From an uncultured archaeon (lineage in GTDB: Archaea; Aenigmatarchaeota; Aenigmatarchaeia; CG10238-14; SCSR01), in contig CAYITO010000004.1 in the NCBI GenBank assembly GCA_964366355.1, forward strand, positions 1 through 33,004: a stretch of 33,004 nucleotides of DNA, given 5' to 3'. Under the pieces are notes generated by a model. That model was not told the origin of the DNA. It did no database searches and saw only the letters and a list, made by a program, of their open reading frames with translations. Both the position numbers and the translations under genes were made by a program. Below, piece by piece: positions 7,476-31,585 of the stretch. Numbering within the stretch: position 1 is the stretch's first letter; each line of letters opens with the position of its first letter.

Positions 7476-7521
7476 TTTCAAACCTTTTTAATAGATAATT
7501 GACAATAAAAAGATAAATATA

Positions 7522-8079: not shown

Positions 8080-8086
8080 GCAATCA

Positions 8087-8635: not shown

Positions 8636-8674
8636 CAGCCTCAATTAATTAATTCTTCTGCAAGGAATTTAAGT

Positions 8675-9280: not shown

Positions 9281-9305
9281 TAATTAAGATATCTCTTATA
9301 AGAAT

Positions 9306-9794: not shown

Positions 9795-9810
9795 AATTTA
9801 ATTTTGGAGG

Positions 9811-10719: not shown

Positions 10720-10725
10720 TAAAAA

Positions 10726-11346: not shown

Positions 11347-11391
11347 AAACAAACCAACTAATTAATTACTTAGTAGAAAATGTAAATATCC

Positions 11392-15676: not shown

Positions 15677-15685
15677 CAATAAAGA

Positions 15686-15704
15686 ATTTGTTTATACAAC
15701 AAAT
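15686..15704. promoter_or_regulatory. 7-5-7 inverted repeat overlapping TATA box(es) of divergent promoters
   Basis: ATTTGTT-TATAC-AACAAAT; TTTATACA at 15691 is 26 nt before ATG 15717. Confidence 0.55.
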
Positions 15705-15716
15705 AAATGTAATAAG

Positions 15717-17951
15717 ATGACTATTGATTACAAGGTTTCAGACGGGGTTTTGAGGATTAATTGCCTGAACTGGGCGATAGCCCCGAGCATAGAAGATTCT
15801 GATGCATGCATGGGAATTGTTGTAGACAAGCTGCTGGAAGCCAAAGACGCCGATAGAATAATTCTTGCAGAGACGAGGGAATACGAATACAACACCGAAC
15901 AAACAAGGATGCTGCGGGAGATAGCGGAACTTTATGACAAATTATTGAACGAGGAAAGAATTCTCAGCATAACAAAGTTGGGGCCGAGAGGCTGTGAAAA
16001 ATATTATCCGCAAAGGCTGGCGGATTTGCAATTCCTGCTTATTGAAGTCCTTAAGAAAGACCCGATTGGCGCGTACGTGAAAGTGAATACGCTGATTACG
16101 CATATGCAAAAGCAGCTGGCCTTGGAAGGCAGCACCTGCCACCAGCATTACCTCTCAAACGCCTTGGAACCGATTAAGAACATGATGGAAAAAACTACTC
16201 TTATCCAGAAAGTCAAGCCGCATATCAACAAATTCAGGTTCGGCGACCGCAAGCTTTACAGGGAAATTTTCACGCCGATAGTAAGACCCAACTTCATGCT
16301 GACACGTTTCATGCTTGACTATCCGCAAGGCGCCGTGCCTGTAGAGAAATATACGATTTCAGGAAACGCACTTGTTGAGATTCTAAAAGTGCCGAATGAT
16401 GTGCGATACGTGTATCATGTAATACCAAAAGAATTCCAGCTGTCAGAAGACAAATTCACAATTTTGGATGCGGCTAGGCGCTATCTTGCAGCCCACAGGC
16501 CATCGGAGGCGGAGGTGAAAGAGCCTGAAAGGGTCAGGGAGATTTTCTTCAACATCGGAGGCGATTTGATAAAGGACGTGGCGAGAAACGCCGGAATCAC
16601 GCTATCCCCTCTGGAAGTGCAGGAGCTTGCAAAGATTTTGGCTAGGTATACGGCAGGATTTGGTGTCTTGGAGCTTCTGCTTGCGGATGATAAAATACAG
16701 GACATTTTTGTAAATGCGCCGATAGGCTCAACTCCGTTGGAAATTTACCATTCTGATTTCGAGGAATGCAGGACAAACCTGATCCCGACAAAAGAGGATG
16801 CAGACGCATGGGCGACGAGATTCAGGCTTTATTCAGGAAGGCCTCTGGACGAAGCCAACCCAGTGCTGGACACAGAGCTTAATGTGCCTGGAGGAAGGGC
16901 GAGGGTTGCTGCAATGACAAGGTCTTTGTCGCCCGAAGGTTTGGCATTTGCATTCAGGCGCCACAGGGAAAAACCTTGGACATTCCCGCTGTTCATGAAC
17001 GTGAAATATTTTGATTCTTTGTACGCAGGATTGATGAGTTTTGTCATCGACGGTGGCAGGGCATTGCTTGTGGCTGGAGGGAGGGGAAGCGGCAAGACAT
17101 CACTTTTGAATGCGATGATGCTCGAGATAATGAGAAAATTCAGGATATGCGTTTTAGAGGACACGCCGGAATTGAACATTTCTTTGATGCGGCAATTGGG
17201 CTATAACATCCTGGGCATGAAGGCACGCTCGGTCATAACCCACATAGAAACAGAGCTGGCAGCTGACGAGGCACTGAGGACTGCATTGAGGCTCGGGGAC
17301 TCTTCCCTAATTATTGGCGAAGTCAGAAGCAAGGAGTCAGTCGCGCTTTTCGAGGCGATGAGAATCGGAGCATTGGCAAATGTCGTTGCAGGCACTATAC
17401 ACGGCGAATCAGCCTACGGAGTTTACGACAGGGTTGTCCACGACCTTGGCGTAGTTCCGACCAGCTTCAAGGCTTTGGATTTGATCACAATCTGCAACCA
17501 GCTTCGCTCACCGGACGGTTTGCACAGGTTTAGGCGCATCACCGAACTCACAGAAGTTAGAAAGCATTGGAAGGAAGACCCGCTTGACGAGGGGGGATTT
17601 GTCCCATTGATGCAATATTCTGCCAAAGAAGACCGGTTAAAGCCTACAGATACTTTGATAGATGGTGAGTCAGAGGTATTGAATGGGATAGCCAAGCGAG
17701 TCAGGGAGTGGCATGGCGCTTGGGACTTGGTCTGGGACAACATACTTTTGAGATCCAAAATAAAGGAGGAAATGGTGGAAGCCGCAAAGAAGCTGAACAG
17801 GTTTGATGTCTTGGAGGCGGAATGGATTACTGCCGGCAACGAAGCCTTCCATTTGATATCCGAAAGCGTGATGCAGGAGGTTGGGAGTCTGGATTCAAAA
17901 ATGATTTTTGAAAAGTGGGAGAGGTGGTTCAAGGAGAGGCTGAAAAAATGA
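15717..17951 (+). CDS. Type IV pilus/T2SS-family assembly ATPase (TadA/VirB11/ArlI-like) with long N-terminal domain
   Basis: Walker A GGRGSGKT, Asp box LEDTPEL, ALRLG, Walker B IIGEVR and GTIHG. The start is ATG 15717 rather than 15405. Confidence 0.95.
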   Translation: MTIDYKVSDGVLRINCLNWAIAPSIEDSDACMGIVVDKLLEAKDADRIILAETREYEYNTEQTRMLREIAELYDKLLNEERILSITKLGPRGCEKYYPQRLADLQFLLIEVLKKDPIGAYVKVNTLITHMQKQLALEGSTCHQHYLSNALEPIKNMMEKTTLIQKVKPHINKFRFGDRKLYREIFTPIVRPNFMLTRFMLDYPQGAVPVEKYTISGNALVEILKVPNDVRYVYHVIPKEFQLSEDKFTILDAARRYLAAHRPSEAEVKEPERVREIFFNIGGDLIKDVARNAGITLSPLEVQELAKILARYTAGFGVLELLLADDKIQDIFVNAPIGSTPLEIYHSDFEECRTNLIPTKEDADAWATRFRLYSGRPLDEANPVLDTELNVPGGRARVAAMTRSLSPEGLAFAFRRHREKPWTFPLFMNVKYFDSLYAGLMSFVIDGGRALLVAGGRGSGKTSLLNAMMLEIMRKFRICVLEDTPELNISLMRQLGYNILGMKARSVITHIETELAADEALRTALRLGDSSLIIGEVRSKESVALFEAMRIGALANVVAGTIHGESAYGVYDRVVHDLGVVPTSFKALDLITICNQLRSPDGLHRFRRITELTEVRKHWKEDPLDEGGFVPLMQYSAKEDRLKPTDTLIDGESEVLNGIAKRVREWHGAWDLVWDNILLRSKIKEEMVEAAKKLNRFDVLEAEWITAGNEAFHLISESVMQEVGSLDSKMIFEKWERWFKERLKK

Positions 17952-18013: not shown

Positions 18014-20218
18014 ATGTCCCTAACAAAAGAATACGAAGATTTTATAAGGGAAGAAATATACCTGAAGAAGCTAACATTTTATGAAAGCCTTTGCCGCATG
18101 GCCGAAAAATTATTGCCGATACCGCCGCCAAATTTCATAGTTAAAAATTACAGGGAGGCAATACAATTCAGCCACTTGAAGATCACTCCAAAACAGGCAT
18201 TCTCTTTGACGGTTTTAGCAACACTCCTAATCGCAATCATACCGTTTTCTGTAGTGGCTTTTCTGAGTCTACCCAACGCAGTTTTTAGGTTAGATACGCT
18301 GGAGACGGAAAGAATTTCCGAAAATACACTTCTGATCAATGCAATGAACACAGGAAATTTTGATGTTTCCGGGTTCAGAGTTTTTGTAGATAATAAAACT
18401 GTGGAAATTACCAATGAGCCAACAGAACCTTTGCATTATAACGAAACAACCGTTATTGAAGCTGAGTGGGAAGGCGATTTTACAGATATCATGGTAGAAG
18501 CAAACAGAGAGGACATACCAGCTATTTTACAGGATACGTTTATAGTATCGATAATTTTGGGTTTCTTAACATTGCTCTACTTATCCAACTACCCTTTACA
18601 TTACTCCATTTTGTACAAAATCAGAGCTACTTCAGAGATGGTACGTTCTGTATTGTACATGACAATTTCCATGAGAATATCTCCAAACATAGAGAATGCC
18701 GTAAAATTCACCGCCAACAACTTGAAAGGGCCTTTGGCTTTGGATTTCAAGCAGATTCTTTGGGACGTATACACAAGAAAACACAATTCTGTATCAGACG
18801 CATTGGACGATTTCATAAATAAATGGAAAAAAGATAATGAGGAATTTACACAGGCCATATATTTAATCAAGTCATCCTCTTTCGAATCCCAGAAGAAATT
18901 AGATGAAAGCTTGGATGAAGCAGTAGAGATTATCCTGAGTGGCACGAAGGAAAGGATGGAGCATTTTGCCCAAGATTTGAGAACACCAGTTACACTTTTT
19001 AATGCACTCGGCATACTACTCCCAATTTTGGGACTTATATTCCTGCCAGTAATAGGAATTTTCTTGCAAGAGGTGGTAAAACCATTCTGGATAATTATAG
19101 GATACGACATCCTCATACCCTTTTCAGTTTACTTGTTGATGAACAATTATTTAGAAAAGAGACCTTATACATTCCATCATCCGGATATATCTAGGCATCC
19201 AAAATTCTCTGGAGATAAACCCTATGGCAAACCATTTATAATTTCAGCCATCGTCGCGATTTCACTGATAGCTGCTGGCTTATTTTTAATGGCGCAATCC
19301 ACCGAGCTATTTAGTTTTGAATTGCTGATTTACTCACTGCTTATCACTTGGGGCATCTCTGCCGGCATAATTATTTATACAATTACGACTACCGGCAAAA
19401 AACTGAAGCTGAGAGATGAAGTTGTGCAAATGGAGAATGAGTTTGCAGAGGGGCTGTTCCAACTTGGAAATCAATTGACTAGAGGCATCCCACTGGAAAC
19501 GGCTTTGAAAAATATCACACCAAAAATGAAAGAGTTGAAAATCTCGAAATTTTTCGAGACAATATTGTATAATATCGAAACCTTCGGCATGACTTTAGAA
19601 CAAGCCGTTTTTGATGAAAGGAGTGGTGCAATCGTATACTATCCATCACAAACGATTGAAGCTACTATGAGAGCAATAGTTGAAATTTCTAAGAAAGGCA
19701 TGGGTGCAGTTTCAAATGCGATGATTACAATTTCTAAATACCTGAAAGATGCCCACAAAGTTCAAGAAGATTTGAGAGAAACTATGGGGGAAACCACTTC
19801 TACCATGGAAATACAAGCGTTACTTTTAGCACCATTAGCATCAGGCATAGTGGTTGCATTGGCTGCAATGATAATGCAGATGCTGATTAGCCTTAGACAG
19901 TCTCTATTGTCCGTACAGGAATCTTTATTTGGCGGAGGGCTTGCCGGTGCAGCTGGCGGAGGATTTTTATCGTCTATAATAAACTTGGACCAAATCATCC
20001 CCGCACACTATTTTCAATTGATTGTTGGCATTTACATGATTGAAATCGTTGGCATGCTGGCTATTTTCTTGAGTACGATCAACAACGGCGAAGAGAGTTT
20101 GTTGAAAAAATTCAACCTCGGCAAGACACTGGCTTTAGCCACGATAATCTACAGTTTGACTTTAATTGTGGTTTATGCCATGTTTGCAAGCATAATACCG
20201 GCTGTAGGAGTGGTTTGA
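18014..20218 (+). CDS. TadB/TadC (GspF/ArlJ-like) membrane platform with two halves in one polypeptide
   Basis: Two cytoplasmic GspF-like domains (S.NIENA..F...GPLA.DF; E.EF...LFQLGN.L..G.PLE.A), each followed by TM helices; directly follows the ATPase. Confidence 0.88.
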   Translation: MSLTKEYEDFIREEIYLKKLTFYESLCRMAEKLLPIPPPNFIVKNYREAIQFSHLKITPKQAFSLTVLATLLIAIIPFSVVAFLSLPNAVFRLDTLETERISENTLLINAMNTGNFDVSGFRVFVDNKTVEITNEPTEPLHYNETTVIEAEWEGDFTDIMVEANREDIPAILQDTFIVSIILGFLTLLYLSNYPLHYSILYKIRATSEMVRSVLYMTISMRISPNIENAVKFTANNLKGPLALDFKQILWDVYTRKHNSVSDALDDFINKWKKDNEEFTQAIYLIKSSSFESQKKLDESLDEAVEIILSGTKERMEHFAQDLRTPVTLFNALGILLPILGLIFLPVIGIFLQEVVKPFWIIIGYDILIPFSVYLLMNNYLEKRPYTFHHPDISRHPKFSGDKPYGKPFIISAIVAISLIAAGLFLMAQSTELFSFELLIYSLLITWGISAGIIIYTITTTGKKLKLRDEVVQMENEFAEGLFQLGNQLTRGIPLETALKNITPKMKELKISKFFETILYNIETFGMTLEQAVFDERSGAIVYYPSQTIEATMRAIVEISKKGMGAVSNAMITISKYLKDAHKVQEDLRETMGETTSTMEIQALLLAPLASGIVVALAAMIMQMLISLRQSLLSVQESLFGGGLAGAAGGGFLSSIINLDQIIPAHYFQLIVGIYMIEIVGMLAIFLSTINNGEESLLKKFNLGKTLALATIIYSLTLIVVYAMFASIIPAVGVV

Positions 20219-21336
20219 TGCATAGGAAGGGAGTGAGCTCTGCAGTTTTGGGGGTTGTCGTCTCATTGATTGTCGGGACGCTTATACTTGCTTCAGCCCC
20301 TAGTAGTCTGGAAAATCTTTTAAAAGATTACTTAAAAACGAAGGTTGAGGCAGCACCGCCTCCGCGAGACAGACCGTCTCCTTCAACAGGCACAACTGTA
20401 GCTTTGGGATGCGGCAATTTTCCGCCTAAATTATCCAGTGCACAGGCAGATATACAATATGGAAAATACAGAGACTATATCGATCAAACTATTGGAGAAT
20501 TGCCAGGGACAGCTCCTTTGAAGGCTGTGCTAAACCCCCATGCATTTGTTGCCGCAATAGCTACTGAAGAAACAAGTTTCGAACATTATAATCCTGATGG
20601 CAGTGTGAAAAGAGGCAGTTCTGGCGAATATGGGATAATGCAGATAATGCCTATAGAAATAGAGGCGGCCGGCAAAGTATGCAAAGACAACGATATTGTA
20701 GATTCCAATAAAGATCTTGAAGATGTATTGAAAAATGTCAGATGCGGCGTTCATTACTTAAATCAAAAACTGCAAGATTGTGGAAATATTCTAGAAGACG
20801 CTGCAACCGCATATAATTCAGGCAGATGTGATTCCTCTGACAAGTCTTATGGAAAACGCGTGATTGGACATTATGAAGAATGGAAGAAATGCATTAAGCA
20901 GAAATATCTATGGCCTGTTTTATTCACAAATAGTGTCAGTGGCTATTGTTTTGGAGATCGTGCGCCAGAATCAAGGGACGGAATACATAAAGGAATAGAT
21001 GCAGCAGGTAGATTAGACGATAAGGTAATGGCAATAGCAAATGGTATAGTTGTAACAGTTGTTACAGGCTGTTCTGAAGGAGACAGACGTTGTGGCGGAG
21101 GTTTAGGTAATTATATCAAGATAAAACATGATGACGGACTTTATTCGGTGTATTCTCATCTATCTAAAGTATCTGTACAAAAAGACAAAAAAGTTGAGCA
21201 GGGATCGGAAATAGGGACTGTGGGTAACACAGGATATTCGCTTGGGGCACATTTGCATTTCGAAATACATGATAAAATGGACACATCTGTAAACCCATGT
21301 AATTTTCTAGATTGCAGTGCCACTAAATGTAGATGA
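20218..21336 (+). CDS. Pilin-like (class III signal) protein fused to lytic transglycosylase (SLT/GH23) and M23 peptidase domains
   Basis: MHRKG|VSSAVLGVVVSLIVG; SLT motifs AIATEETSF, GIMQI and AYNSG; M23 motifs HKGID, GNY..I.H, YSHLS, G.VGNTG.S.G.HLHFE. TGATG coupling to the platform gene. Confidence 0.9.
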   Translation: MHRKGVSSAVLGVVVSLIVGTLILASAPSSLENLLKDYLKTKVEAAPPPRDRPSPSTGTTVALGCGNFPPKLSSAQADIQYGKYRDYIDQTIGELPGTAPLKAVLNPHAFVAAIATEETSFEHYNPDGSVKRGSSGEYGIMQIMPIEIEAAGKVCKDNDIVDSNKDLEDVLKNVRCGVHYLNQKLQDCGNILEDAATAYNSGRCDSSDKSYGKRVIGHYEEWKKCIKQKYLWPVLFTNSVSGYCFGDRAPESRDGIHKGIDAAGRLDDKVMAIANGIVVTVVTGCSEGDRRCGGGLGNYIKIKHDDGLYSVYSHLSKVSVQKDKKVEQGSEIGTVGNTGYSLGAHLHFEIHDKMDTSVNPCNFLDCSATKCR

Positions 21337-21387
21337 TGATTGAAATAACTAAAAACAATATTACACTACAATTCCAAGATATTAATT

Positions 21388-21603
21388 ATGAACAAAGGGA
21401 TGACTGGAGAAGCCATAAGGACAGTTGTAATTCTGGTTATAGCTGTTATTGCGTTGGTGTTGCTCTGGATGTTCTTCTCCGGACAGCTAAAACTTACAGC
21501 CTTTTCATTTGAAGAGATAACTAAAGGATTTGCTAAAACATTCAACCTTTGTAAGAACTTTAAGTTCTTATTCCTTGAAAAGATTTGTGGCACACTAACA
21601 TGA
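21388..21603 (+). CDS. Small pilin-like protein
   Basis: MNKG|MTGEAIRTVVILVIAVIALVLLW; short two-Cys tail. Confidence 0.8.
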   Translation: MNKGMTGEAIRTVVILVIAVIALVLLWMFFSGQLKLTAFSFEEITKGFAKTFNLCKNFKFLFLEKICGTLT

Positions 21604-21641
21604 AATTTATGACACCAAAAGATAAATTAGAAGTTAATAAT

Positions 21642-22340
21642 ATGGAAAAAGGCGCCGTTACTACAATAGTTTTTCTCGTTCTGGGGGTTGTGGTTTTGCT
21701 TGGAGTAGCAGGGATATTTTTTAAAGGTACATCTACCGCAGACCCGTTTTCTGTCCTATCATGTTTCATCGCTGGCGGGAAGGATTGCGAACTGGGAAAA
21801 GAAGGAGCAAAAGGAGATGAAAGTAAAAAAATTACTGAGGATTTACAAAAGGCAATCAAATGTGCATACACAAGATGTTATGGAGAAAGTGGTGTACAAA
21901 AGGGATGTACTCTTCTTAAGACAAATGATATAACATGGGGGGATAAGGGTAAAATATCATGTTTTAGAGAATTTTGTAAAGGAAAAGAAGGTCCATTATG
22001 CGGAGAAGATAGTGAAAAGTATCCAGTAACATTTCAGTCAAATATAAGAGAACTAGATGTTATAAAACTTCATCCTAAAATTCCTCCAAACATGTACTTT
22101 AATAGCAAATGTGATTTCGCAGCTATTGTACTAGGTGAAGATGAGGTATCGATAGAGGAGAGACTATTGATTAATGGGAATGGACCGAAAGATTGTGATC
22201 AAAAATCTGGGGGGGAAGGGGAAAGAGGAAGACAGAAAGAATGCCGATTAAAATCCGATGTTCCTATAAATATTTACCATAAGGCCACTGGAGCAATTAA
22301 TCACATAATCTTGTGTTCAACAACCTTTCAATATAAATAA
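21642..22340 (+). CDS. Pilin-like protein with Cys-rich domain; N-terminal part of a frameshifted gene
   Basis: MEKG|AVTTIVFLVLGVVVLLG from ATG 21642; the L.KAI.CA..RC domain is shared with 23014-25368. Confidence 0.82.
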   Translation: MEKGAVTTIVFLVLGVVVLLGVAGIFFKGTSTADPFSVLSCFIAGGKDCELGKEGAKGDESKKITEDLQKAIKCAYTRCYGESGVQKGCTLLKTNDITWGDKGKISCFREFCKGKEGPLCGEDSEKYPVTFQSNIRELDVIKLHPKIPPNMYFNSKCDFAAIVLGEDEVSIEERLLINGNGPKDCDQKSGGEGERGRQKECRLKSDVPINIYHKATGAINHIILCSTTFQYK

Positions 22341-22968
22341 ACCAGGAGAGCAGCCAAAAGGTCCTGTAACATTCTTTGAAAAAGAGAATCAAGATTATCA
22401 AAAAAGTTCATCTATAGACATAGCCAGCGACACACCCAGCCTAGAGAATGTTGGTAAAGAACTTTTCGACGGCGTATCTTCAATAAGACTTTCAACCTCT
22501 GAATATGTTGTGGCATTATACGATAAAGTAGATTATAAAGGCAATTGCAGGACATTCTTCTCTAGTGTAGATAAACTCAGCGATTACGAATTTAACGACA
22601 AAACAAAGTCTGCTAAAGTCTGGAAAATTGGTTTCAAAGGTGTTATTTTACATGATAAACCATTCAATCCAGATTGGAATGTTTGGCACAAGGGCAATAA
22701 CGAATTTTATCTAGCTGACGAGCAAGTACATAAGCTAGAAGAGTCTGGTTGCGTTTCTAAAGATAACGGTGTAGAGTCGGTTGAAATGGGAACCAATGTA
22801 GATGTAGTTTTATACGAGGGAGATAATGTTTTGTATGTTACTGAATCAAGCGGTAATCTACCATCAGATAAAATAAATAAAGCAACCCATGTAAAAGTTT
22901 GTCCCAAAACTTCTAGCGCTTGCCTTAAGCAATCAGAAAAGAATTTGAAACAAAGTCAAACACCCTAA
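22309..22968 (+). pseudogene. Beta/gamma-crystallin domain reading frame, +1 continuation of 21642-22340
   Basis: Frame is open from 22309 with no start codon until GTG 22510 but reads VTFFEKEN..DTPSL..FDGVSSIRL..VVALYDKVDYKG.C.TF..L..FNDKTKSAKV, followed by a second degenerate copy (DNGVESVE..VVLYEG). Confidence 0.72.
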
Positions 22969-23013
22969 AGTCATCGCAGTAACCTTTCTTAATAACCAAC
23001 CGAAATATTATTT

Positions 23014-25368
23014 ATGAAAGGCCTAGCTATAGGTGCAGTAGTGATGCTCGTTCTAGCAGTTATAGTTCTGTTAGTTCTTGTGCCTAGGATGTTTCAAGCA
23101 GTGGGCATAGGAGATGCATTTGATCCCTTGGGTGTTAAAAAAAAGTTGGCATCAATAGAAATTGGCAATAACTTAGAAAAGGCAATTGCATGTGCGAAAG
23201 TAAGATGTTTCGAAGGATGCGGAAAAGCTAAGAGCATAAAATGGGAAGGAGGCACTTGTGCAGAATTTTGCGATCCCAACAAACTTAAAGAATACGGGCT
23301 TAAGGATGATAGTAAAGTTTGTGATGAAATTTCACGCGCCTATCCAGTGGAGTTTAGAACACCAGAAACTGGGGGCAGTGCGACAATACAAGCAGAGGAT
23401 TTAAGCGATATTTTTAGCTGTGTGGCAACTGCAACCGACAAATGTGGTACTGGCGGTTATGCTAGAGAAAAAGTCGGAGGCAAACCAGTTTTATACATAG
23501 ACAATTCTGCCATCGAATCAAAAGACACCGCTGGCGTTGGTGCCCTTCCATTTGGCCGTGAATGCCAAGAAAAATTCGATGTATGGAAGTATTCAGCAGA
23601 TGTAGCGGTACTAGCTGTACCAGGGACCGCATACTTCAAAGTGTTGAAAACTGGTGGTGTTCTTGTAAAATCAGTAAAAACAGCCACAAATGCCAAACTT
23701 GTTGGAGGAACTGCTGCAGGTCTCTTGACTGTAAGTGAATTTACGCAACTTGAAACAATTAGATCCGCTAATTTGAAACCCGCCCAAACAATTTATATAT
23801 GGGCTGATGACAGAGGGTTTGGAAAGATTAGTGGCCCCGGCGATATTTTCAAAAATATTGGAACCTTCTTTAAAGGAATGTACGAAACTGTAGGTAGCTT
23901 TAGACTTCCAGGCGGGACCACAGATCATGTTATGGTATGCGGCAAACTTCCCGAGGCACGATGTAAAGGAACACCTCTAGCATGTAACGCCCCCATTAGG
24001 TTGGAGTCAAACAAATGTGATTTAGGATGCGGCCTATCTAGTGAAATATCAGAATCTCTGGATGGTTGGTCTGGCGATACCGGCCTTCAAATAACAACCG
24101 ATAGCACTAACAAAAAATTAGGAACTAGTTCAATTAAAATAAGAGGCGAGTTATCAATCATCAGCAACAAATACGGCGTATTGAATAAATTCGTTGAATA
24201 TAAATTCAATGCACCAGCAGACTTAACTAAAGGTATAGCATTTTATACTAAATCGAGTTCTATTAGTAACAATATCGCTGTAATTCAGCTTACCGACAAT
24301 TCAGGCAATGAAGCAAGTACTAAAAAAACCCTTACCATAAGGAATGACTGGCAATACAATACCCCCAATAAAGATGATTTTCAATTGCATTCGCAATCTT
24401 TTGACTGGAGTAAAGTTGAAAAAATAAAATTTGAAGTTGGTAGTGATGGACCACCGTTTGAATTTTTATGGATAGATGGGCTTCAATTGCTCCAAAATGC
24501 CTGTACAGGACAGCCCCAATCCTGCAATAAATTTACTAGCAAGGGTACTTGTTTGTCGCAGCCAGGTTGTTGCTGGAGTTCAGATTGCGGGGATCTTAAT
24601 GTAAAATTAGGCGTCTCAAAGAACGATGAAAGATTTAAGAAATTTGAACAAGCAATAAGCGATGCAGGTGGAAAGCTTAATGCCGTGCTTATTTGGGGGT
24701 CCGATACACTTGATATTACAGATGATGTAAATGAAAATATTGTAAAATTGTTTAATTCACCGCGTTTAGCTGGCCTCGACAGTTGGGCGGATTACCAAGT
24801 ATGCAAGTATAAAAACAAACAGAATAACGATATTGTAATCCTTCCAGGCACGTGTACCCTTGAATTGCGAGGAGCCAATCAACCTTCCTATTGTGCTGGC
24901 AAAGAGGGCTTCAAACACTATCCGTTCAGATGCGGCTGTCCGAAAGATTATGGAGTAGCGGTAGGCGGCGGGCTTCTGGATGATTCATGCAAACCATTTG
25001 ATAAGAACAACATTGTTCAAACTATCATCCATCTGGATGCTGATAGAGTTGTTGGCGAAATAAAGGGCGAAGTTATTTATGACGAAACCGTTAAGGCAGA
25101 CGGCAACGACTTTAAGCTAGTTGTAGTTGCTTTGTTGGATAAAGATTTCGTAGTTATTAACGGCATTAAGGAAGATGAGATAAAGTTTGAGACCGACCGG
25201 CCAGAGTTTGATGCACTAGACGATATAGCATGTCAGGAAGATGGCGGTGTACTCTATTACACATGCAGAGTTGCTATAAGTTCTACTAAAGCTGGCACAT
25301 CAACTGTCAAATTCAACTATAAAGGTGTTGAAAGAGGATTGATACAGGTAACTTTTCTAGAATCATAA
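23014..25368 (+). CDS. Large multidomain pilin-like adhesin (Cys-rich domain, Gly/Ala-rich segment, CBM-like jelly roll)
   Basis: MKG|LAIGAVVMLVLAVIVLL; the DGW...K.G.SSIK...DL..I.FY.K...LTD..G...WQ...FDWSKV..I.F...WID.LQL pattern is galactose-binding-like. Confidence 0.8.
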   Translation: MKGLAIGAVVMLVLAVIVLLVLVPRMFQAVGIGDAFDPLGVKKKLASIEIGNNLEKAIACAKVRCFEGCGKAKSIKWEGGTCAEFCDPNKLKEYGLKDDSKVCDEISRAYPVEFRTPETGGSATIQAEDLSDIFSCVATATDKCGTGGYAREKVGGKPVLYIDNSAIESKDTAGVGALPFGRECQEKFDVWKYSADVAVLAVPGTAYFKVLKTGGVLVKSVKTATNAKLVGGTAAGLLTVSEFTQLETIRSANLKPAQTIYIWADDRGFGKISGPGDIFKNIGTFFKGMYETVGSFRLPGGTTDHVMVCGKLPEARCKGTPLACNAPIRLESNKCDLGCGLSSEISESLDGWSGDTGLQITTDSTNKKLGTSSIKIRGELSIISNKYGVLNKFVEYKFNAPADLTKGIAFYTKSSSISNNIAVIQLTDNSGNEASTKKTLTIRNDWQYNTPNKDDFQLHSQSFDWSKVEKIKFEVGSDGPPFEFLWIDGLQLLQNACTGQPQSCNKFTSKGTCLSQPGCCWSSDCGDLNVKLGVSKNDERFKKFEQAISDAGGKLNAVLIWGSDTLDITDDVNENIVKLFNSPRLAGLDSWADYQVCKYKNKQNNDIVILPGTCTLELRGANQPSYCAGKEGFKHYPFRCGCPKDYGVAVGGGLLDDSCKPFDKNNIVQTIIHLDADRVVGEIKGEVIYDETVKADGNDFKLVVVALLDKDFVVINGIKEDEIKFETDRPEFDALDDIACQEDGGVLYYTCRVAISSTKAGTSTVKFNYKGVERGLIQVTFLES

Positions 25369-25430
25369 GTTGGCAATTTCTTGGTAATTAGCTTTATATT
25401 CTACCCAATAGAAATTAGATTTAAGAGATT

Positions 25431-25901
25431 ATGAGAAAAGGGGTAGCCGTACCATACGTAATTGCAATCCTTCTAGGAATAGTTGTGATTGCCATAATAG
25501 GGTTTACTTTCTTCACATCAACTACAAGTATATCAGTACAAGACTGCCGGAACAAGTTGAGCACTTATTGTAGTTTGTGGAGTGCTACTGGTTATACCGG
25601 CAAGCCTTCTGGGGAATGGGATGATTTTGCGAAGGGATGTTCACAATTAGGTGTTGCAGATCCCAGCGAACCAGATTGTAGAGCCCGCATTGGAACTTTA
25701 CTAGGAGTGGGGGCAACATGTGAAAATAATGCAGAATGTCAGTCTAAAGTTTGTGAACCAAATTGTGTACCAACTTGCCCTACAGGTTTTGCATCTAGAG
25801 CAACTCCAACATGTACAAACGCAAGATGTAGTGTAACTTGTCTCAAAGCAGGCGAGGCAGATCAAACTGCAACCTGTTCTACACCCAAGAAGTGTAAATA
25901 A
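25431..25901 (+). CDS. Pilin-like protein, 4-Cys core plus Cys-rich tail
   Basis: MRKG|VAVPYVIAILLGIVV; CRNKLSTYCSLW; 14 Cys in total. Confidence 0.85.
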   Translation: MRKGVAVPYVIAILLGIVVIAIIGFTFFTSTTSISVQDCRNKLSTYCSLWSATGYTGKPSGEWDDFAKGCSQLGVADPSEPDCRARIGTLLGVGATCENNAECQSKVCEPNCVPTCPTGFASRATPTCTNARCSVTCLKAGEADQTATCSTPKKCK

Positions 25902-25939
25902 TTTTCTTTAAATTAATGTAAAAGCAAAATAATTAATTA

Positions 25940-26320
25940 ATGTCAAAAGGCGTGGCTGTCAGCTACATAATCGCAATAGTTTTGGGCATAGTAATTTTGG
26001 CATTGCTCGGGTTTTGGTTTAATAAAGAAGGTACTCTCTTTGGAAGTATTGCAGACCAGGAAACTTGTAAGGCAAAACTAATAGCATATTGCACTTCTTG
26101 GTCAACAAGCGGATATGATGATAATAAAAAGCCTGGTGAGAACGAAGATTTTTATGCTATACACAAGGATTGCGAGCCACATAAAAAATTACTTACTGGT
26201 GGTAAAACCGGTAACGACATCGAAACTAAATGTAAAGAGCTTCTTAGACAAACTAGCCAACCACCCACAGCACAACCTCGGCCCACATCTACTTCTCCAC
26301 AACGTCCTCCAGCACGCTAA
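25940..26320 (+). CDS. Pilin-like protein, 4-Cys core plus Pro/Thr/Ser/Gln tail
   Basis: MSKG|VAVSYIIAIVLGIVI; CKAKLIAYCTSW. Confidence 0.85.
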   Translation: MSKGVAVSYIIAIVLGIVILALLGFWFNKEGTLFGSIADQETCKAKLIAYCTSWSTSGYDDNKKPGENEDFYAIHKDCEPHKKLLTGGKTGNDIETKCKELLRQTSQPPTAQPRPTSTSPQRPPAR

Positions 26321-26377
26321 ATTAAAAAACCAACAGCGAATAAGAAGAATATTATAGAGGGAAGTTAAGATTAAATT

Positions 26378-26671
26378 ATGAAAGCAATCGCAGTAAATAC
26401 TATTTTTATAATCATAACCACACTTATGTTTTTCTTTTTTGCAATCGTGCTTACCTTTGGTTTCATCGATTTTTTTGGAACGGAAGCTACACAGATGGGT
26501 TGCGGTGTCAAGCTGTTAAATTACTGCACTTTTTGGGCTGTCAAAGATTTCGCAGAAGGCGACAAGCCGTATGAATGGGAGGAAAAATCACCAGAAGGAT
26601 GCGATAAGTTCCTCAAGGGCGTAGGCGCTAAAGGACCGTCAAAAGCCCAATGCAATCCAATAGTAAAATAA
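26378..26671 (+). CDS. Pilin-like protein, 4-Cys core only
   Basis: MKA|IAVNTIFIII; CGVKLLNYCTFW. Confidence 0.82.
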   Translation: MKAIAVNTIFIIITTLMFFFFAIVLTFGFIDFFGTEATQMGCGVKLLNYCTFWAVKDFAEGDKPYEWEEKSPEGCDKFLKGVGAKGPSKAQCNPIVK

Positions 26672-26691
26672 TAGAAAGGTAAATATTAACT

Positions 26692-27084
26692 ATGACACTC
26701 AGCGCTGTCGATGTTCTATTGTTTATTGCATATTTCGCCATTGCTGTATGGTTTGGCACAATGCTGTTCCCTAAAATAATAGAGGATGTACAGCAAAGTA
26801 TAGCGAGAACGTCTACACATGCCGTCGCTTTAGAATTATCTGGGTTAACCTCTTTAACTGGCGCAGCTACAGAAGATATAAAAATTGATTATGATATACA
26901 GGATGAAGTAGTGCATGAGGTGACTGTAAAAGGGAAGCTTATTAATGTAATCAGAGTTGACAATACTAAACAAAATTTCCTATACTCACTCCCATTTAAG
27001 TTTGCAATTGACGATACAGCAGTCGGAGCAAATTTCCGAATTTTTAAGCTGAATGATGAATATGGGATAGAGAAGATTGGATGA
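26692..27084 (+). CDS. Single-pass pilin-like protein without a basic leader
   Basis: N-terminal hydrophobic helix, then an amphipathic helix and beta-rich region; ATGA-coupled to the next gene. Confidence 0.65.
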   Translation: MTLSAVDVLLFIAYFAIAVWFGTMLFPKIIEDVQQSIARTSTHAVALELSGLTSLTGAATEDIKIDYDIQDEVVHEVTVKGKLINVIRVDNTKQNFLYSLPFKFAIDDTAVGANFRIFKLNDEYGIEKIG

Positions 27085-27611
27085 GAAGCAAAGGACAGCT
27101 TTCAAACATTTTTGTAAGACACTTTTTCTTTATGCTTGCGGTTGCACTTTTCTTTTTCCTGCTATTTTTATATTGGGGGGCTCAGATAAATGCCGAGGAA
27201 GTTCTAAATGAAAACGAAATTTTAATATCCAGAAAGATTGTGTATGCAAAAGTGCTTTTGAGTTCTTATATGCTGGCATATGAAGATGAAAATGGCGTAC
27301 ATGCTGGTATGTTAGATGAAAACAAAATAAAAAATTTGGACGAGGATAGACTGTTTGAAACTTATAGCTATCAAGCCGATGACATAGAAGTTAACGCCCC
27401 TGGAGGCGGCAGATTTATCCCCAAAAGCTATGCCCACCTAGTTAGGATCGAAGTGTTAGAACCGAAGACCGAAATTCTAAAAGAAGTCAAGCAGGTAAGA
27501 TACGGAGTTGGATTTGCCAATCCGATAGAATTTCCCCTAACAATTAGGGATGAACAAGGTAATGTAAAATTGGGCAGGATACTTGTTAACATAGTTCCGG
27601 TGGAGAGATGA
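27081..27611 (+). CDS. Minor pilin-like protein
   Basis: MRSKG|QLSNIF..FFFMLAVALFFFLL; ATGA overlaps on both sides. Confidence 0.75.
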   Translation: MRSKGQLSNIFVRHFFFMLAVALFFFLLFLYWGAQINAEEVLNENEILISRKIVYAKVLLSSYMLAYEDENGVHAGMLDENKIKNLDEDRLFETYSYQADDIEVNAPGGGRFIPKSYAHLVRIEVLEPKTEILKEVKQVRYGVGFANPIEFPLTIRDEQGNVKLGRILVNIVPVER

Positions 27612-28051
27612 AAGGCATACTTGATTTACCTATTTTGATCATTCTGCTAATTGTATTCATCCCATTTTTACTTGTAGGACCAGAGATCCTAAGGATTAAC
27701 ATACAAACCCAATACGCAATTAATTATAAGACTCTCATTGCTAAAGATACATTGCTTTCTATATTGTCAGTTACAAACCCCGATTTCCTAAACGATAACA
27801 AGCCAAAACTCACGTTGGAAATCATAGGAGAAAGGCTTTCGATAGCTGGCCAGAAGGTGGAATTTTTGATAAGTGATTTAGACAAGCTTGTGAAAAGCAA
27901 ATGCTACCTGTTAGAAAGCGGAAATGTTAAGCTTGCCGATAAAAGTTGTTCTGATCTTAAGGATCAAAAGTATCAAACGAATCCAGTCAAAATTGTTTTG
28001 CCTTTCCATCCAAAAAAACTTGTTGAAAATATTAGGCTGGCGATTAAATGA
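27608..28051 (+). CDS. Minor pilin-like protein
   Basis: MKG|ILDLPILIILLIVF; ATGA overlaps. Confidence 0.75.
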   Translation: MKGILDLPILIILLIVFIPFLLVGPEILRINIQTQYAINYKTLIAKDTLLSILSVTNPDFLNDNKPKLTLEIIGERLSIAGQKVEFLISDLDKLVKSKCYLLESGNVKLADKSCSDLKDQKYQTNPVKIVLPFHPKKLVENIRLAIK

Positions 28052-29172
28052 GAAAAGGTCTATCTATCGTGCATTTCATTATTTTCATACTTATTTTCCT
28101 TTACGCAGGCATTGGATTTATTTACATCTCTTCGTTTAGAGAAATCGAAACCATTCGAAAAGGCGTTGGTGAAATGCTTATAGCTGATGGCATAGATGAC
28201 ATGGAACTTTTAAGGAGAAATTTACAGCAAGCACTAAGCTATTCCTACTATCAATCATCGTTTGAAATTGCGAAGAATGGTGGCAATTCTGAAGCATCAG
28301 TAAAATGGAGATATTACGGTGATACATCAGGCTTTCCAACAGACTTTATAAAAATCTTGACTTCCAGAACACTTGAAATGCTAAACCAATATAGCCATCA
28401 GTTGACTGGCGGAAGAATTACAACAGTAGATTATACACAGGTTGATGTAGAAAGAGATGACAAGGAAGATAAAGAGCATATAAGCGCCTTTTCTAAGGAT
28501 GAGAAAAACAACGATAAGAAACTCAAAATAGTCGGAGGTTTGCTTGGTATTAAATATGAATTAGAAAACAAGGCAAATGTTTTTGCCAAGCTTCCTACTA
28601 AGACTTTAACTTTGTTTGGAATAGGTAAAGAAAATTTTGTGTCAATTGATAAAACAAAAGAAAAAATAATTGAAGCAATAACCGCAATCGGGTTTAAATC
28701 CAACTATAATGAAAATTTACAAACAACAACTGGAAGTATGGAACTATGCGGTATACAACCTACACAAGAGCAAGTTTTTAAAAACGAAAATGGTTTTGAA
28801 ATTTCAGAAGGCGAAAATCAAATTTTAGAGAATACAGATTCAAAATTAAATTCCTTAGGTGAAGAGCTAAGTACATCTACAGTTTCAACTAGATTATCTG
28901 TGGTTGATAAAAAAAGTAAGATAATCCCAACATGCACACCCAGTACAGGAGGATGTTGTGAACGATCTGAAAGTGGTTGTGTTAAAGAGTTTAAAATAAC
29001 AACATGCACATTCAAATATGTTGGTGCAGCCAAGGTTAAAGTTTCCATTTCAGATATAGCAAACAAATATCCAGTTTACGATTCCACACTTGATAAAAAC
29101 ATCATGAGCAATATCCAGTTAAACTTTAATGTGGTTTCTGGGAATGATTATAACCAAAAATTAATTCAATAA
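28048..29172 (+). CDS. Large minor pilin-like protein
   Basis: MRKG|LSIVHFIIFILIFLY; long helix ending in IAKNGG; Cys cluster near the C-terminus. Confidence 0.75.
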   Translation: MRKGLSIVHFIIFILIFLYAGIGFIYISSFREIETIRKGVGEMLIADGIDDMELLRRNLQQALSYSYYQSSFEIAKNGGNSEASVKWRYYGDTSGFPTDFIKILTSRTLEMLNQYSHQLTGGRITTVDYTQVDVERDDKEDKEHISAFSKDEKNNDKKLKIVGGLLGIKYELENKANVFAKLPTKTLTLFGIGKENFVSIDKTKEKIIEAITAIGFKSNYNENLQTTTGSMELCGIQPTQEQVFKNENGFEISEGENQILENTDSKLNSLGEELSTSTVSTRLSVVDKKSKIIPTCTPSTGGCCERSESGCVKEFKITTCTFKYVGAAKVKVSISDIANKYPVYDSTLDKNIMSNIQLNFNVVSGNDYNQKLIQ

Positions 29173-29191: not shown

Positions 29192-31468
29192 CTATTGTGG
29201 AGCAGGGAATTTACATATGTCATTCGCGCCCCAAACTCCCCAATCCGCACCGTTGCTTGATATCTGACAAGCAATATCAATATTTCTATCTATCTCGTCA
29301 ATTCTTTGAACACATCTAGCATATCTATCCATATCAGCATCTTTAACCCAGCAATTACGTAATTTACAATATCTGATTCCTTGGGTTGTAGTAGCCCATT
29401 CCAGACAACTTCCAAGGGACCCACCATCTGTTTCGAAGAGACCTACACAGTCCCCACCAATTTTCTCCGCATGCGCAATTACATTAATTTGAAATAGCCC
29501 ATGAGAATACACAGTTCCATCTTTGCATCTATCAGTTCCACTCGGTTTGAGTGGATCGCCACCGCTTTCTTTATTGCAAATAGCTGACGCTTTAGGCGCA
29601 TTACTACCAAAACATGTATCCTTCAACTTATCTATAGTACAGCCACCACTAATATCGCGAGGACATTCAGATGTGGAGCCAAGTGGCTGTTCCCCTTCCT
29701 CAACTTTACCAATAGTCTCTGTACTCATAGGTATGTTAGCTTTTACAAATGTTGCCACATAATTATATTCCACCTCAGCCTTGAATTGGTATGCCCTAAA
29801 TTCAATTATGCCTTCAGTGTCAACTTTTTCTTGACTGCGCAATGACGGCGGAAAGTCATTTATCTGATACCTGCAAATATAAGTATGCTCTTTTAGTATC
29901 CTTGGAGCTAAATCTTCCACCTTTTTAATACTACCAAGTGTACCCTCCTCATCTTTGAATAGAATATTTTTAGCACTTGGCCCTAAAGACTCTAAAAAGC
30001 AATTGCCACCTAGAAACGGCAATATACCTTTAACTAGGTTTGTATATTCTTTTGGGAAAGTTCCTTCTGGAGTTTTAAAAGGAAATATCTTTACAGATTT
30101 TACCTCTATCTTGGCATCCTTCTCGTCCTTGTTTATCAGCCTAACTTTTACATCTTTCACATTGTGGATACAATACCCACCTGTTGAGCTGAATAAAGTT
30201 TCAGGTAATTTTTCGCATAGACCCCCACTATCTACAAAGTAACCATCGCCACCTTCACTCTCATCTCCGACTGTATAGAATGGAGGTATGACTACAACAT
30301 CCAAAGGTCCTGAAAAGGTATTGGGACAGTTATTGTTTTTGAAATTGGGATCTTGCTGCTTTGCCACAGCATCTTTGCTATCTTTGAAAATCAGCAGAGT
30401 GCCGATTCCAACGCCTTTCTTATCCTCCTTGTCGTATCTTATCTTGGCTTCAATATTCACCTCAGCTTTTATACCAGATTTGAATTCAATTTTTTTTGTG
30501 GTAATCAAGTCCACAGTTTTCTCGCCACTGGGTCCGGGCTCTATCAAGCAGCCATTAGGAGGCAAACAGCCCAAAGGAGTTAATAAATTAAATGCTATCG
30601 GCTTTTTGATATCCTTAATTTTCTTATCCGTTTCCCCTTTTATAAAGGAGCCTTCGGCATCTAAATTTATAATTTCATTCCCATCTTCAGTCTTTTCACT
30701 ATCCAGTGATTTACCTGGAGCAATTATAACATTCAAGGGCTTCTTGACATTCTCATCCAGCTTAATCTTAACAGTTAACTTATAGAACTCCCCTCTCAGT
30801 GGCCATGCAGGAGCTTGTATGCCGACAGAAATAGGCTTACCGCTTTCAATGACATTCCCCTCTTCATCAAGCTTTCTGTATTTGACATTGCCCTGCTCAT
30901 CCGTACCACACGCTATTTCTTCTTTTGTCTTTTCCTTTTCCCCTGGCACATCTATCTTTGGCAGAAAACTTACCTGCTCTGCTATAGAGTTCCATCCTGA
31001 AATGAATTGTTTTACTTGCGGTATTGCCAAAAGCGATTCTACACCCGCTGTTATAAGAGGTTTTACAATAAAAATTGGAATAAAGATTGTGAAAAGGTAG
31101 AATATTATGAGCTCAACGATAGCACGGCCCATTGGCGGTGGATGTAAGAAATATGGCGGCTGGGGTTCTGAATAGTTACTAGCTCTCAACCAGCCAAAAA
31201 GAAAGAACATTATCATTGGCAACCATCTGAAGAGAAGCTCGCCAAAACCTGGTAAAGGAAGTGCCTTTCCAAGCTCTCCCAATAAGTCTAAAAGGTTGTC
31301 TAACTGAAATGTCCAAACTATTGTAGGAATTACTGCAAATAAAATAAGAAAAATGATAAAACGCGGATTGCCAATTTTACTACCAAGACCTTTTCCTTTT
31401 CCTTTTGGCGGTGTTACACCACCTGGGGCTCCCACTGGATATCCTGGTTGGCCTGGTCTTAATTGCAT
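29192..31468 (-). CDS. Membrane-anchored surface protein with beta-rich ectodomain and C-terminal SLT/lysozyme-like domain
   Basis: Pro/Gly N-tail and about 3 TM helices; C-terminal ASAICNKESGGDP...SHGLFQIN...NIDIACQIS..G.DW..W. Confidence 0.82.
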   Translation of the reverse strand: MQLRPGQPGYPVGAPGGVTPPKGKGKGLGSKIGNPRFIIFLILFAVIPTIVWTFQLDNLLDLLGELGKALPLPGFGELLFRWLPMIMFFLFGWLRASNYSEPQPPYFLHPPPMGRAIVELIIFYLFTIFIPIFIVKPLITAGVESLLAIPQVKQFISGWNSIAEQVSFLPKIDVPGEKEKTKEEIACGTDEQGNVKYRKLDEEGNVIESGKPISVGIQAPAWPLRGEFYKLTVKIKLDENVKKPLNVIIAPGKSLDSEKTEDGNEIINLDAEGSFIKGETDKKIKDIKKPIAFNLLTPLGCLPPNGCLIEPGPSGEKTVDLITTKKIEFKSGIKAEVNIEAKIRYDKEDKKGVGIGTLLIFKDSKDAVAKQQDPNFKNNNCPNTFSGPLDVVVIPPFYTVGDESEGGDGYFVDSGGLCEKLPETLFSSTGGYCIHNVKDVKVRLINKDEKDAKIEVKSVKIFPFKTPEGTFPKEYTNLVKGILPFLGGNCFLESLGPSAKNILFKDEEGTLGSIKKVEDLAPRILKEHTYICRYQINDFPPSLRSQEKVDTEGIIEFRAYQFKAEVEYNYVATFVKANIPMSTETIGKVEEGEQPLGSTSECPRDISGGCTIDKLKDTCFGSNAPKASAICNKESGGDPLKPSGTDRCKDGTVYSHGLFQINVIAHAEKIGGDCVGLFETDGGSLGSCLEWATTTQGIRYCKLRNCWVKDADMDRYARCVQRIDEIDRNIDIACQISSNGADWGVWGANDICKFPAPQ

Positions 31469-31585
31469 TAGCACTGTTATCTAAAATACAATTTGTGATT
31501 CTAGAAATATTAACCTAAAGCTTTTAAATATTACCCTATAATTAACAGTAGGTTGTTCAAAACTACAGCAACAGGAGGTTTAGAA

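Follow-up and report, generated by a model that had tools for sequence, protein, structure and literature searches.

Type IV pilins with a modular layout have been described in bacteria, with PilB and PilC of Streptococcus sanguinis as examples (Raynaud et al. 2021, PMC8179133). A survey of such pilins in bacteria found more than 1,200 proteins in 264 architectures, and a peptidase was among the modules; the survey was based on the bacterial signature IPR012902, and the word 'archaea' occurs nowhere in its main text (PMC8179133). We analyzed a stretch of 33,004 nucleotides from an uncultured archaeon (contig CAYITO010000004.1 of assembly GCA_964366355.1; GTDB lineage Aenigmatarchaeota; Aenigmatarchaeia; CG10238-14; SCSR01), hereafter the window. 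One of its genes, P0001, joins a short pilin-like N-terminal module to an SLT (GH23) and an M23 domain, and lies in a pilus-like operon. An earlier note on the same DNA had described P0001 as an archaeal pilin-like protein carrying two murein hydrolases and had proposed that it is aimed at bacteria. Our analysis confirmed the observation, and the interpretation was supported in all the parts that can be tested computationally.

Murein transglycosylases have been reported in print from Woese- and Pacearchaeota, and their GH23/SLT domains are thought to act on bacterial walls (PMC8204110; Vigneron et al. 2022, PMC9723730). The lytic-transglycosylase (LT)-domain proteins of DPANN archaea (fam00969) are described as large and extracellular, with up to 3,000 amino acids (aa) (Castelle et al. 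2021, PMC8204110). Weaponised peptidoglycan hydrolases are also known in archaea: M23 enzymes were acquired from bacteria and show a patchy distribution, with homologues in four Nanoarchaeia genomes (Strock et al. 2025, PMC12352652). In the bindosome of Sulfolobus, PibD processes non-structural proteins that carry signal peptides of the pilin type and rely on pilus-like assembly (PMC3387779).

For most DPANN archaea, host and mode of attack have yet to be established, and murein hydrolase genes are the main genomic hint of bacterial targets. Nothing had previously tied these hydrolases to a delivery structure. In the text of the sources available to us, we found no description of an archaeal murein hydrolase fused to a pilin or of a pilus-operon link for DPANN hydrolases; the supplementary tables (Raynaud Dataset S1, Castelle Supplementary Table 3, Strock S2 Table) may list such cases.

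The genome under study (847 kb in 73 contigs, 88.5% completeness) fits a DPANN-type organism, and the sequencing-run labels give groundwater as its source. Genes in the window for S3Ae, S15 with an S13/S15 N-domain, Alba and TYW2 agree with the archaeal origin claimed in the earlier note.

Architecture of the P0001 gene

The open reading frame (ORF) of P0001 starts at ATG 20218 (or TTG 20215), stops at 21334-21336 and encodes 372 aa with zero internal stops. Its ATG shares the A with the TGA (20216-20218) of the upstream gene, which encodes a putative platform protein; this TGATG overlap confirmed the translational coupling suggested before. AGGAG is located 7 nt upstream of the ATG.

The SLT domain was recognized by Pfam (PF01464) at aa 108-205 with an E value of 1e-13 and 51.3 bits, against a cut-off of 21.3, and the match was repeated in a whole-genome search. 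The domain contains E118-T119, GIMQ (139-142) and AYNSG (198-202), which we take to correspond to the SLT motifs E-S/T (with the catalytic Glu), G-[LI]-M-Q and A-Y-N-x-G. In alignments with phage SLT domains, E118 falls on the E of their 'ES' motif; it is also invariant in P0122 and P0123, two homologues of the SLT-M23 cassette described below. The M23 domain (PF01551) matched at aa 256-360 (E 2.7e-26, 92 bits against a cut-off of 28.7) and contains HKGID at 257-261 (H257xxxD261), H314 and HLH at 345-347. The columns of H257, D261, H314, H345 and H347 are at least 90% conserved in a 48-sequence alignment, and we presume for these residues the roles known from LytM and lysostaphin. The zinc and catalytic residues are lost in the inactive LytM factors EnvC and NlpD. 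Since the His and Asp columns are conserved here, the M23 domain appears to be of the active kind rather than a degenerate LytM factor. All of the SLT and M23 motifs named in the earlier note are present, and the domain ranges given there, somewhat wider than the Pfam envelopes, were right.

Searched against PDB sequences, the M23 part gave 32 matches (best E 1.3e-15); a phmmer search of PDB with the SLT part (aa 60-235) found nothing. An AF2 model based on an alignment enriched in SLT sequences (A4) showed a mean predicted local distance difference test score (pLDDT) of 76.8, with 75-95 for the SLT and 92-98 for the M23 part. In this model, the SLT region is helical (pLDDT 75-95 over aa 110-230). 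A first model, based on alignment A2, was dropped because its SLT part had a pLDDT of <50. Employing Foldseek against PDB, we obtained M23 structures at probability 1.0, with a TM value (target) of 0.77 to the LytM domain of DipM and to StM23; M23 enzymes (Csd1/2, DipM, ShyA, lysostaphin, LytM) dominated the matches. These results established, at the level of predicted domains, that P0001 has a two-enzyme murein hydrolase architecture with intact active-site motifs in both domains.

P0001 contains 12 Cys residues (3.2%), which places it at the 93rd percentile of the 853 ORFs of at least 100 aa in the genome (median 0.77%) and bears out the 'many Cys' remarked on before. Nine of the 12 are invariant in both P0122 and P0123. 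The core of the C-terminal Cys motif, NPC..(L/V).C (P360, C361, C366), is common to P0001, P0122, P0123 and a third relative, P0136; more of the motif is kept in P0122 and P0123 and less in P0136 (NPCLFVNC).

A check for misassembly, as the earlier note had advised for the platform/P0001 junction, detected none. An independent metagenome contig of 1425 bp (L018) corresponds to window positions 20165-21589 with 2 mismatches and spans P0001 with both junctions. Contigs from 4 runs in 2 studies map to 19000-22400 with zero differences, and three of them bridge position 20218 at the platform/P0001 junction (X1, 19193-20324; X2, 20083-20310; X4, 20148-20449). To the extent that contigs can show it, the locus is not misassembled. 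At 0.397, the GC content is level with the genome average (0.394), and neither GC nor GC at third codon positions (GC3) flags the cassette as foreign.

The N-terminal module and its unfused counterparts

P0001 begins with MHRKG, in which K and G occupy positions -2 and -1 before V, and is then uncharged up to aa 27. A hydrophobic stretch of about 22 aa begins straight after KG, as in the neighbouring pilin-like genes; the sole transmembrane (TM)-like segment is at aa 4-32, and a Pro-rich stretch follows at aa 45-56. The RKG leader, hydrophobic helix and Pro-rich linker of the earlier note were therefore all seen. Class III signals have a positive residue at -2 and G or A at -1, followed by about 20 uncharged hydrophobic residues (PMC3387779). 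The leader of P0001 agrees with this rule and passed the same filter as its neighbours, a crude motif filter for class III-like N-termini.

The comparison with related genomes carried the case beyond a motif match. By protein search, P0001 had no match in any of the 3 same-genus genomes (G001, G002 and G003), all of which possess an orthologue of the platform protein (74-78% identity). The locus of G002 is fully syntenic, from the gene before the ATPase gene to the gene after P0271, and G001 and G002 both keep the order of the pilus-like locus, with ATPases of 87-92% identity, platform proteins of 74-78% identity, the nine genes with pilin-like starts and an orthologue of P0271. In neither of these two genomes is there a hydrolase between the platform gene and the first small pilin. 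In its place, G002 has a 48-aa ORF, MNNKGMHRTMLLFIIGMILIILILAFFSSGLYNIIKEYIEKRITIGDK, whose ATG overlaps the platform TGA (ATGA), and G001 has a 47-aa ORF, MNNKGLHRVILLF..., in the same arrangement, with its start overlapping the platform stop. Both begin with MNNKG. Two relatives of family f4 (G039 and G059) carry a 51-aa mini-ORF with MKG at the same position.

Such a mini-ORF of 47-51 aa, with M(NN)KG, a helix and a charged tail, was seen after the platform gene in 4 of the 4 related loci inspected (L165 at ~6615-6761 in G002, L158 in G001, L148 and L145 in G039 and G059). It is short enough for gene callers to miss.

Aligned without gaps, aa 1-48 of P0001 and the G002 mini-ORF share 14 of 48 identical and 30 similar residues; with the G001 mini-ORF, 12 of 47 are identical. 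Among the 8680 ORFs of this genome with 40 aa or more, P0001 was the best phmmer match to the G002 mini-ORF (E 0.0045). A hidden Markov model (HMM) of the four mini-ORFs ranked the 71-aa pilin of the same locus (E 8.4e-4) and P0001 (~9e-4) at the top, and the next match had an E value of 0.12. The K-G before the helix is kept in all five peptides, whereas the A-S-A of P0001 is absent from the four mini-ORFs; this tips the N-terminus towards the class III reading, without proving it.

Apparently, aa 1-48 of P0001 correspond in both position and sequence to a conserved mini-ORF of 47-51 aa. Because the sister mini-ORF aligns ungapped, finds P0001 as its best match and stands at the same position, P0001 would be a recent in-frame fusion of a mini-pilin gene and the cassette. 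Judged from sequence, the mini-pilin-like gene of the operon itself was extended by a linker and an SLT-M23 cassette to give P0001. The fusion architecture, the position in the operon with the overlap of the platform stop, and the pre-fusion state in the sister genomes are shown.

The surrounding locus and related lytic proteins

The coordinates of P0001 and its neighbours are collected in Table 1. P0001 is encoded together with a secretion ATPase, a putative platform protein and other pilin-like proteins, and the genome encodes a prepilin peptidase (a single Peptidase_A24 gene on contig C1, around 11434-11772; 46.4 bits, above cut-off). The genome also has an archaeal signal peptidase I (61.6 bits) and five T2SSE-type ATPases.

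Table 1. Features of the P0001 locus (positions in the window).
Feature	Coordinates	Strand	Basis or remark
TadA/FlaI-like secretion ATPase	15717..17951	+	likely true start, M105 of ORF 15405-17951
Polytopic membrane protein, putative platform (FlaJ/TadC/T2SSF-like), 734 aa	18014..20218	+	8 TM-like segments
P0001, chimeric mini-pilin / SLT / M23 gene, 372 aa	20218..21336	+	sequence, Pfam
Mini-pilin module of P0001, aa 1-44: MHRKG leader, hydrophobic helix aa 6-27, amphipathic helix aa 29-44	20218..20349	+	
Pro/Ser/Thr-rich linker, aa 45-70	20350..20427	+	sequence; pLDDT <50 for aa 42-70
SLT / GH23 lytic-transglycosylase-like domain	20539..20832	+	Pfam envelope aa 108-205; helical domain ~aa 74-225 in model
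M23 zinc endopeptidase domain, aa 256-360, with Cys-x6-Cys loop (C285, C292)	20983..21297	+	Pfam, PDB matches, model
C-terminal Cys motif NPCNFLDCSATKCR	21298..21333	+	comparison with three relatives
71-aa pilin-like protein (MNKG + hydrophobic), paralogue of the mini-pilin module	21388..21603	+	top match of mini-ORF HMM
Ten further genes	21642..29172	+	nine with pilin-like/N-terminal-helix starts; several Cys-rich
Genes with pilin-like/N-terminal-helix starts	21642, 23014, 25431, 25940, 26378, 26692, 27081, 27608, 28048	+	
P0271, 760-aa membrane protein, C-terminal Cys-rich lysozyme-like (SLT_3-type) domain, aa ~600-760	29192..31474	-	

The ATPase matched Pfam T2SSE (58.8 bits) and, below the cut-offs, the NCBIfam TadA-family (E 1.9e-36) and FlaI (E 3.6e-32) models. 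Its 848-aa ORF starts with TTG at 15405 and overlaps a minus-strand ORF (15287-15679). The orthologues (57-92% identity) have their first residue aligned with aa 105 (MTIDYKV..), which makes ATG 15717 the probable real start. The platform gene is located directly 3' of the ATPase gene. Homologues are present in 114 of the 118 genomes of the order and adjoin the ATPase gene wherever inspected; among ESM-Atlas clusters, archaeal membrane proteins of the T2SSF/GspF type came nearest (score 0.92, a lead only). Based on position, conservation and this lead, we accepted the 734-aa protein as the platform. An 83-aa insert of the platform protein (aa 91-173, window 18284-18532) has no counterpart in the three same-genus genomes, in which the matches are split into 1-90 and 174-733. 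Fragments similar to platform aa ~77-250, with several stop codons, are found elsewhere in G001 (C11) and G002 (C100).

The 71-aa pilin-like protein has orthologues in G001 and G002. The nine pilin-like-start genes begin with M-x-K-G or similar plus a hydrophobic helix, and all nine are syntenic in G002. Genome-wide, class III-like N-termini were found in 46 of 2678 ORFs, and 7 of these 46 are within 20215-29172. The gene at 22510-22968 (+, 152 aa) has no counterpart among the G002 ORFs examined; it showed a weak beta/gamma-crystallin match (E 7.9e-4, below cut-off) and no pilin-like N-terminus. At 6906-12165 (-), tandem paralogous multi-TM ORFs form two sets, neither with a Pfam match: one (6906, 7522, 8087, 9306) has the common N-terminal pattern ..GAF.F.(L/F)PF.LT....Y.LL, and the other (10726, 11392) a common signal-like start and Cys motif. 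A scan for bacterial-type promoters and terminators, which is unsuited to archaea, gave counts close to those of shuffles (49 vs 42.3; 17 vs 13.3) and was discarded.

P0271 is convergent on the last pilin-like gene, and its lysozyme-like domain lies at window 29195-29677. The C-terminus matched Pfam SLT_3 below the cut-off (E 7e-4) and phage SLT_3 clusters of the Atlas at 0.96; phmmer of this part against PDB gave nothing meaningful. The orthologue in G002 has 587 aa, is 42% identical, ends before the lysozyme-like domain and is followed by the next gene after 26 bp. This locus may therefore have acquired wall-lytic modules twice, each time in a lineage-specific way. Contig C25 (locus L002, 1423-3180, -) encodes a third candidate for a murein hydrolase in this genome. 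This extracellular protein is large, rich in Cys and Thr/Pro and open at the end of the locus, with a C-terminal SLT-like pair of motifs (..CESSW.. and ..GPFQYMPSTW..; Pfam SLT E 2.9e-4, below cut-off).

Across the order, M23 was found in 24 of the 118 genomes, with 31 matches. Counting by hand from two match tables, we found at least 9 of the 31 M23 matches, in at least 8 of the 24 M23-bearing genomes, within 15 kb of a platform homologue among the matches listed. The link between M23 and the pilus locus thus appears recurrent but not universal. In three relatives (G039, G059, G057), a membrane protein of 510-699 aa with a C-terminal M23 domain is convergent on the last pilin-like gene, the position that P0271 has in the window. 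In G055 (L146, 6799-8733), a 644-aa protein with ..SKA plus a helix, a GH5/TIM-barrel glycosidase-like region and a C-terminal M23 domain is encoded among pilin-like genes; its gene adjoins one for a HerA/DUF87 ATPase rather than a T2SSE ATPase. G047 encodes a 336-aa SLT protein with MKA plus a helix. G001, which lacks P0001, has two M23 matches on contigs C47 and C58 (57.6 and 28.6 bits), so M23 genes exist in the genus outside this locus.

In an exhaustive HMMER scan of 1.84 billion representatives, 83,431 matches were obtained, nearly all to the M23 domain alone, and only two (P0122 and P0123) covered the whole cassette. P0122 has 1452 aa with the cassette at 1018-1332; identity to P0001 was 44% over the stretches matched by HMMER and 37% over 343 columns by BLASTP (E 7e-47). 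P0123 is a fragment of a P0122-like protein, and locus L019 encodes the C-terminal 795 aa of a giant of this type, in which TM segments precede the cassette. P0001 has its Cys pattern and the C-terminal NPC..LDC motif in common with these homologues. It appears that the only close relatives of the cassette sit in giant metagenomic membrane proteins. An origin of the cassette by splitting off a fused platform gene was ruled out: P0122 has no similarity to the platform protein or P0271. Word-based homologue searches with the whole of P0001, with aa 56-235 and for longer proteins found no full-length relative, and a scan of genome contigs gave a single weak bacterial M23 match.

The earlier note had proposed domain phylogenies to find the donor. 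Our M23 tree, built by a quick method from 47 rows chosen out of more than 83,000 matches (126 columns), was poorly resolved, and no donor can be named from it. P0001 grouped with P0122, P0123, P0136, P0145, P0157 and P0212 at an SH-aLRT support of only 87, apart from the M23 domains of its order relatives. Three of these neighbours start with (R)KG plus a helix: P0136 (1215 aa) has ..RKG and a helix followed by SLT, M23 and a glycoside hydrolase (GH) domain, and P0145 and P0157 have MKKG or MKG and a helix plus M23. When P0145 was compared with the last pilin-like gene (28048-29172), the similarity of the N-terminal stretch lacked significance (E 0.68).

Proposed mode of action, alternatives and known systems

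We favor, with a probability of roughly 0.55, the reading that P0001 is a modular, pilin-like murein hydrolase that arose by recent gene fusion and works like a phage tail lysin. The type IV pilus-like (Tad/Epd-like) operon conserved in this order of small-genome archaea encodes, right after the platform gene, a mini-pilin-like peptide of 47-51 aa with a short K/R-G leader, one hydrophobic helix and a tail of ~20 aa. In this lineage, the mini-ORF would have been extended in frame by the SLT(GH23)-M23 cassette via the Pro-rich linker. The N-terminal helix would insert P0001 in the membrane, the single A24 prepilin peptidase may cut it after G5, and the ATPase/platform machine may handle it and present it on or at the base of a filament, on a flexible tether of ~25 aa. 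At the contact point, SLT would cut the glycan strands and M23 the peptide cross-links of bacterial peptidoglycan, and the local opening of the wall could serve attachment, penetration or feeding, as with a phage tail lysin.

Several points weigh against this reading. The similarity between P0001 and the mini-ORFs is weak (16-18 bits) and partly due to hydrophobic composition. With its helix and short tail but no globular (beta-sheet) pilin head, the module may serve the machine as an accessory peptide anchored in the membrane instead of building the filament; were the mini-ORF the major subunit, loading each copy with a 35-kDa cargo would be odd. Flp-type mini-pilins offer a comparison. Lacking a head, the module resembles these at most, and we do not file it as a canonical pilin. 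Class III processing of P0001 is deduced from the motif, and the bacterial target from the known substrate of the SLT and M23 families. The platform protein matched no Pfam or NCBIfam family. As to the order-wide link, M23 and the platform occur together in only five genera (g1, g6, g30, g37, g39) among the matches listed, related genomes are non-independent samples, one of the nine co-located M23 matches does not reach the Pfam cut-off, and the order has many M23 genes away from the platform locus. By hhalign, the large M23 proteins of the relatives showed no homology to P0271 (probability 0.6%), and we call them positional analogues only.

The same N-terminus can also be read as a Sec signal or an uncleaved anchor, with A-S-A before P at aa 25-28. 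P0001 would then be an ordinary secreted or membrane-tethered murein hydrolase, independent of the pilus, which serves antibacterial competition or the scavenging of wall fragments and owes merely its expression to the operon. We regard this as the main alternative, though less probable than the favored reading. The A-x-A at aa 25-27 indeed follows a hydrophobic stretch, and the genome encodes the archaeal signal peptidase I that would be required; the closest cassette homologues (P0122, L019) are multi-TM giants and not pilins. Archaeal peptidoglycan hydrolases have been shown experimentally to act as secreted weapons (PMC12352652), and other DPANN murein hydrolases are large extracellular proteins with no pilus link stated in the available text (PMC8204110). 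However, the A-x-A is missing from the four orthologous mini-ORFs while the K-G directly before the helix is kept, and the hydrophobic stretch starts right after KG, like those of the neighbouring pilin-like genes. The N-terminal module, moreover, is older than the fusion, as a component of the pilus operon, and KG-plus-helix N-termini recur on other M23 and SLT proteins.

The restriction of the fusion to this genome, with no match in the 3 same-genus genomes and an unfused junction in two of them, would also suit a recent chimera that is neutral or not yet functional. The 3' end of the mini-ORF would have received the cassette by accident, to yield a protein that goes unused or disables the mini-pilin. 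Such a chimera is unlikely, since the reading frame is intact, the catalytic residues and the 9 shared Cys are kept relative to homologues of only 37-44% identity, the GC content equals the genome average, the sequence is identical in contigs of two studies, and a second lytic domain was added in the same locus (P0271). Least probable of all is a housekeeping role, in which P0001 makes space in the cell's own envelope for the pilus to pass. SLT domains are typical accessory enzymes of trans-envelope machines in bacteria (VirB1, FlgJ), and the P0001 gene is inside the operon of its machine. We know of no murein in archaea, however, and the sister genomes have the same operon without the enzyme. 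Neither a Mur ligase nor a penicillin-binding protein (PBP) transpeptidase was found in this genome (88.5% complete), and the target is therefore unlikely to be the cell's own wall.

A pilus-borne lysin of the favored kind would link a hydrolase to a machine. Here a glycan-cutting and a peptide-cutting enzyme are joined to one component of a pilus-like operon that 114 of the 118 genomes of the order possess, and related lineages set M23 enzymes beside the same operon. The fusion suggests that the pilus machinery helps the archaeon breach bacteria, and a pilus-mounted lysin, analogous to a phage tail lysin, is a concrete and testable mechanism. The genome pair offers a clean natural before and after for the fusion, and the enzyme, ~310 aa without its anchor, is small enough to express and assay. 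It would extend the modular-pilin principle from bacteria to archaea. Tentatively, P0001 may even be a modular type IV pilin whose cargo is enzymatic, the first from archaea: its pilus would bear a two-enzyme peptidoglycan drill, and the birth of its gene would be caught with the sisters still unfused. We hold this stronger claim to be somewhat short of an even chance. If it is true, one near-universal pilus-like system of the order would be a cross-domain device for host attack or attachment, and at least some of these DPANN archaea would live on bacteria rather than archaea.

DPANN murein hydrolases, archaeal M23 enzymes, bacterial modular pilins and class III signals on non-pilins were already known. 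New here are the sister loci with a mini-ORF in place of the hydrolase, which suggest that P0001 is a fusion of a mini-pilin and a cassette. P0001 fits the layout of modular pilins (an N-terminal module, a short linker and a functional module), with its pilin nature suggested by motif, operon position and mini-ORF orthology. It differs from them in that the module is a bare helix and tail (Flp-like) without a globular head and the cargo consists of two murein hydrolases. In the bindosome, the cargo consists of solute-binding proteins, not enzymes attacking another cell (PMC3387779).

The available text on the DPANN LT proteins (PMC8204110, PMC9723730) makes no mention of an M23 partner, a pilin-like N-terminus or a pilus-operon setting, and with 372 aa, as compared with up to 3,000 aa in fam00969, P0001 is of a size that argues against simple membership. 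This genome also holds larger SLT proteins of the DPANN type, P0271 and the C25 ORF. The characterized halobacterial enzymes, as described in the available text, combine M23 with PG_binding_1 and are secreted toxins (PMC12352652), whereas P0001 has a second catalytic domain instead of a binding domain and is set in a pilus operon.

Phage enzymes are also among the closest known systems. Peptidoglycan hydrolases of the phi29 gp13 type, carried by virions, have a lysozyme-like N-domain and an M23 C-domain; P0001 has the same activities, as predicted, in the same order and joined by a linker. The same SLT/M23 pair also occurs within phage tape-measure and ejectosome proteins. Foldseek aligned both domains of P0001 to phi29 gp13 (3csq_D, 336 columns, E 1.7e-7) and to the pre-ejectosome of cyanophage A4 (9k2v_A, 455 columns), and the matches in BFVD included tape-measure proteins, 'Morphogenesis protein 1 hydrolase' and 'Lysozyme/metalloendopeptidase'. 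Moreover, 26 viral contigs carry SLT plus M23 at 26-28% identity, for example inside a 2282-aa ORF. Based on these structural and viral-contig matches, SLT followed by M23 is a known device of phage particles for breaching bacterial walls. Unlike the phage enzymes, P0001 is chromosomal in an archaeon, has a pilin-like helix at the N-terminus and shares only 15-28% identity with them; both of its domains are of a Cys-rich, probably disulfide-bonded variant. The phage enzymes ride on a filamentous or tail device that meets the bacterial wall from outside, and it is to this arrangement that P0001, on its putative pilus, may be likened.

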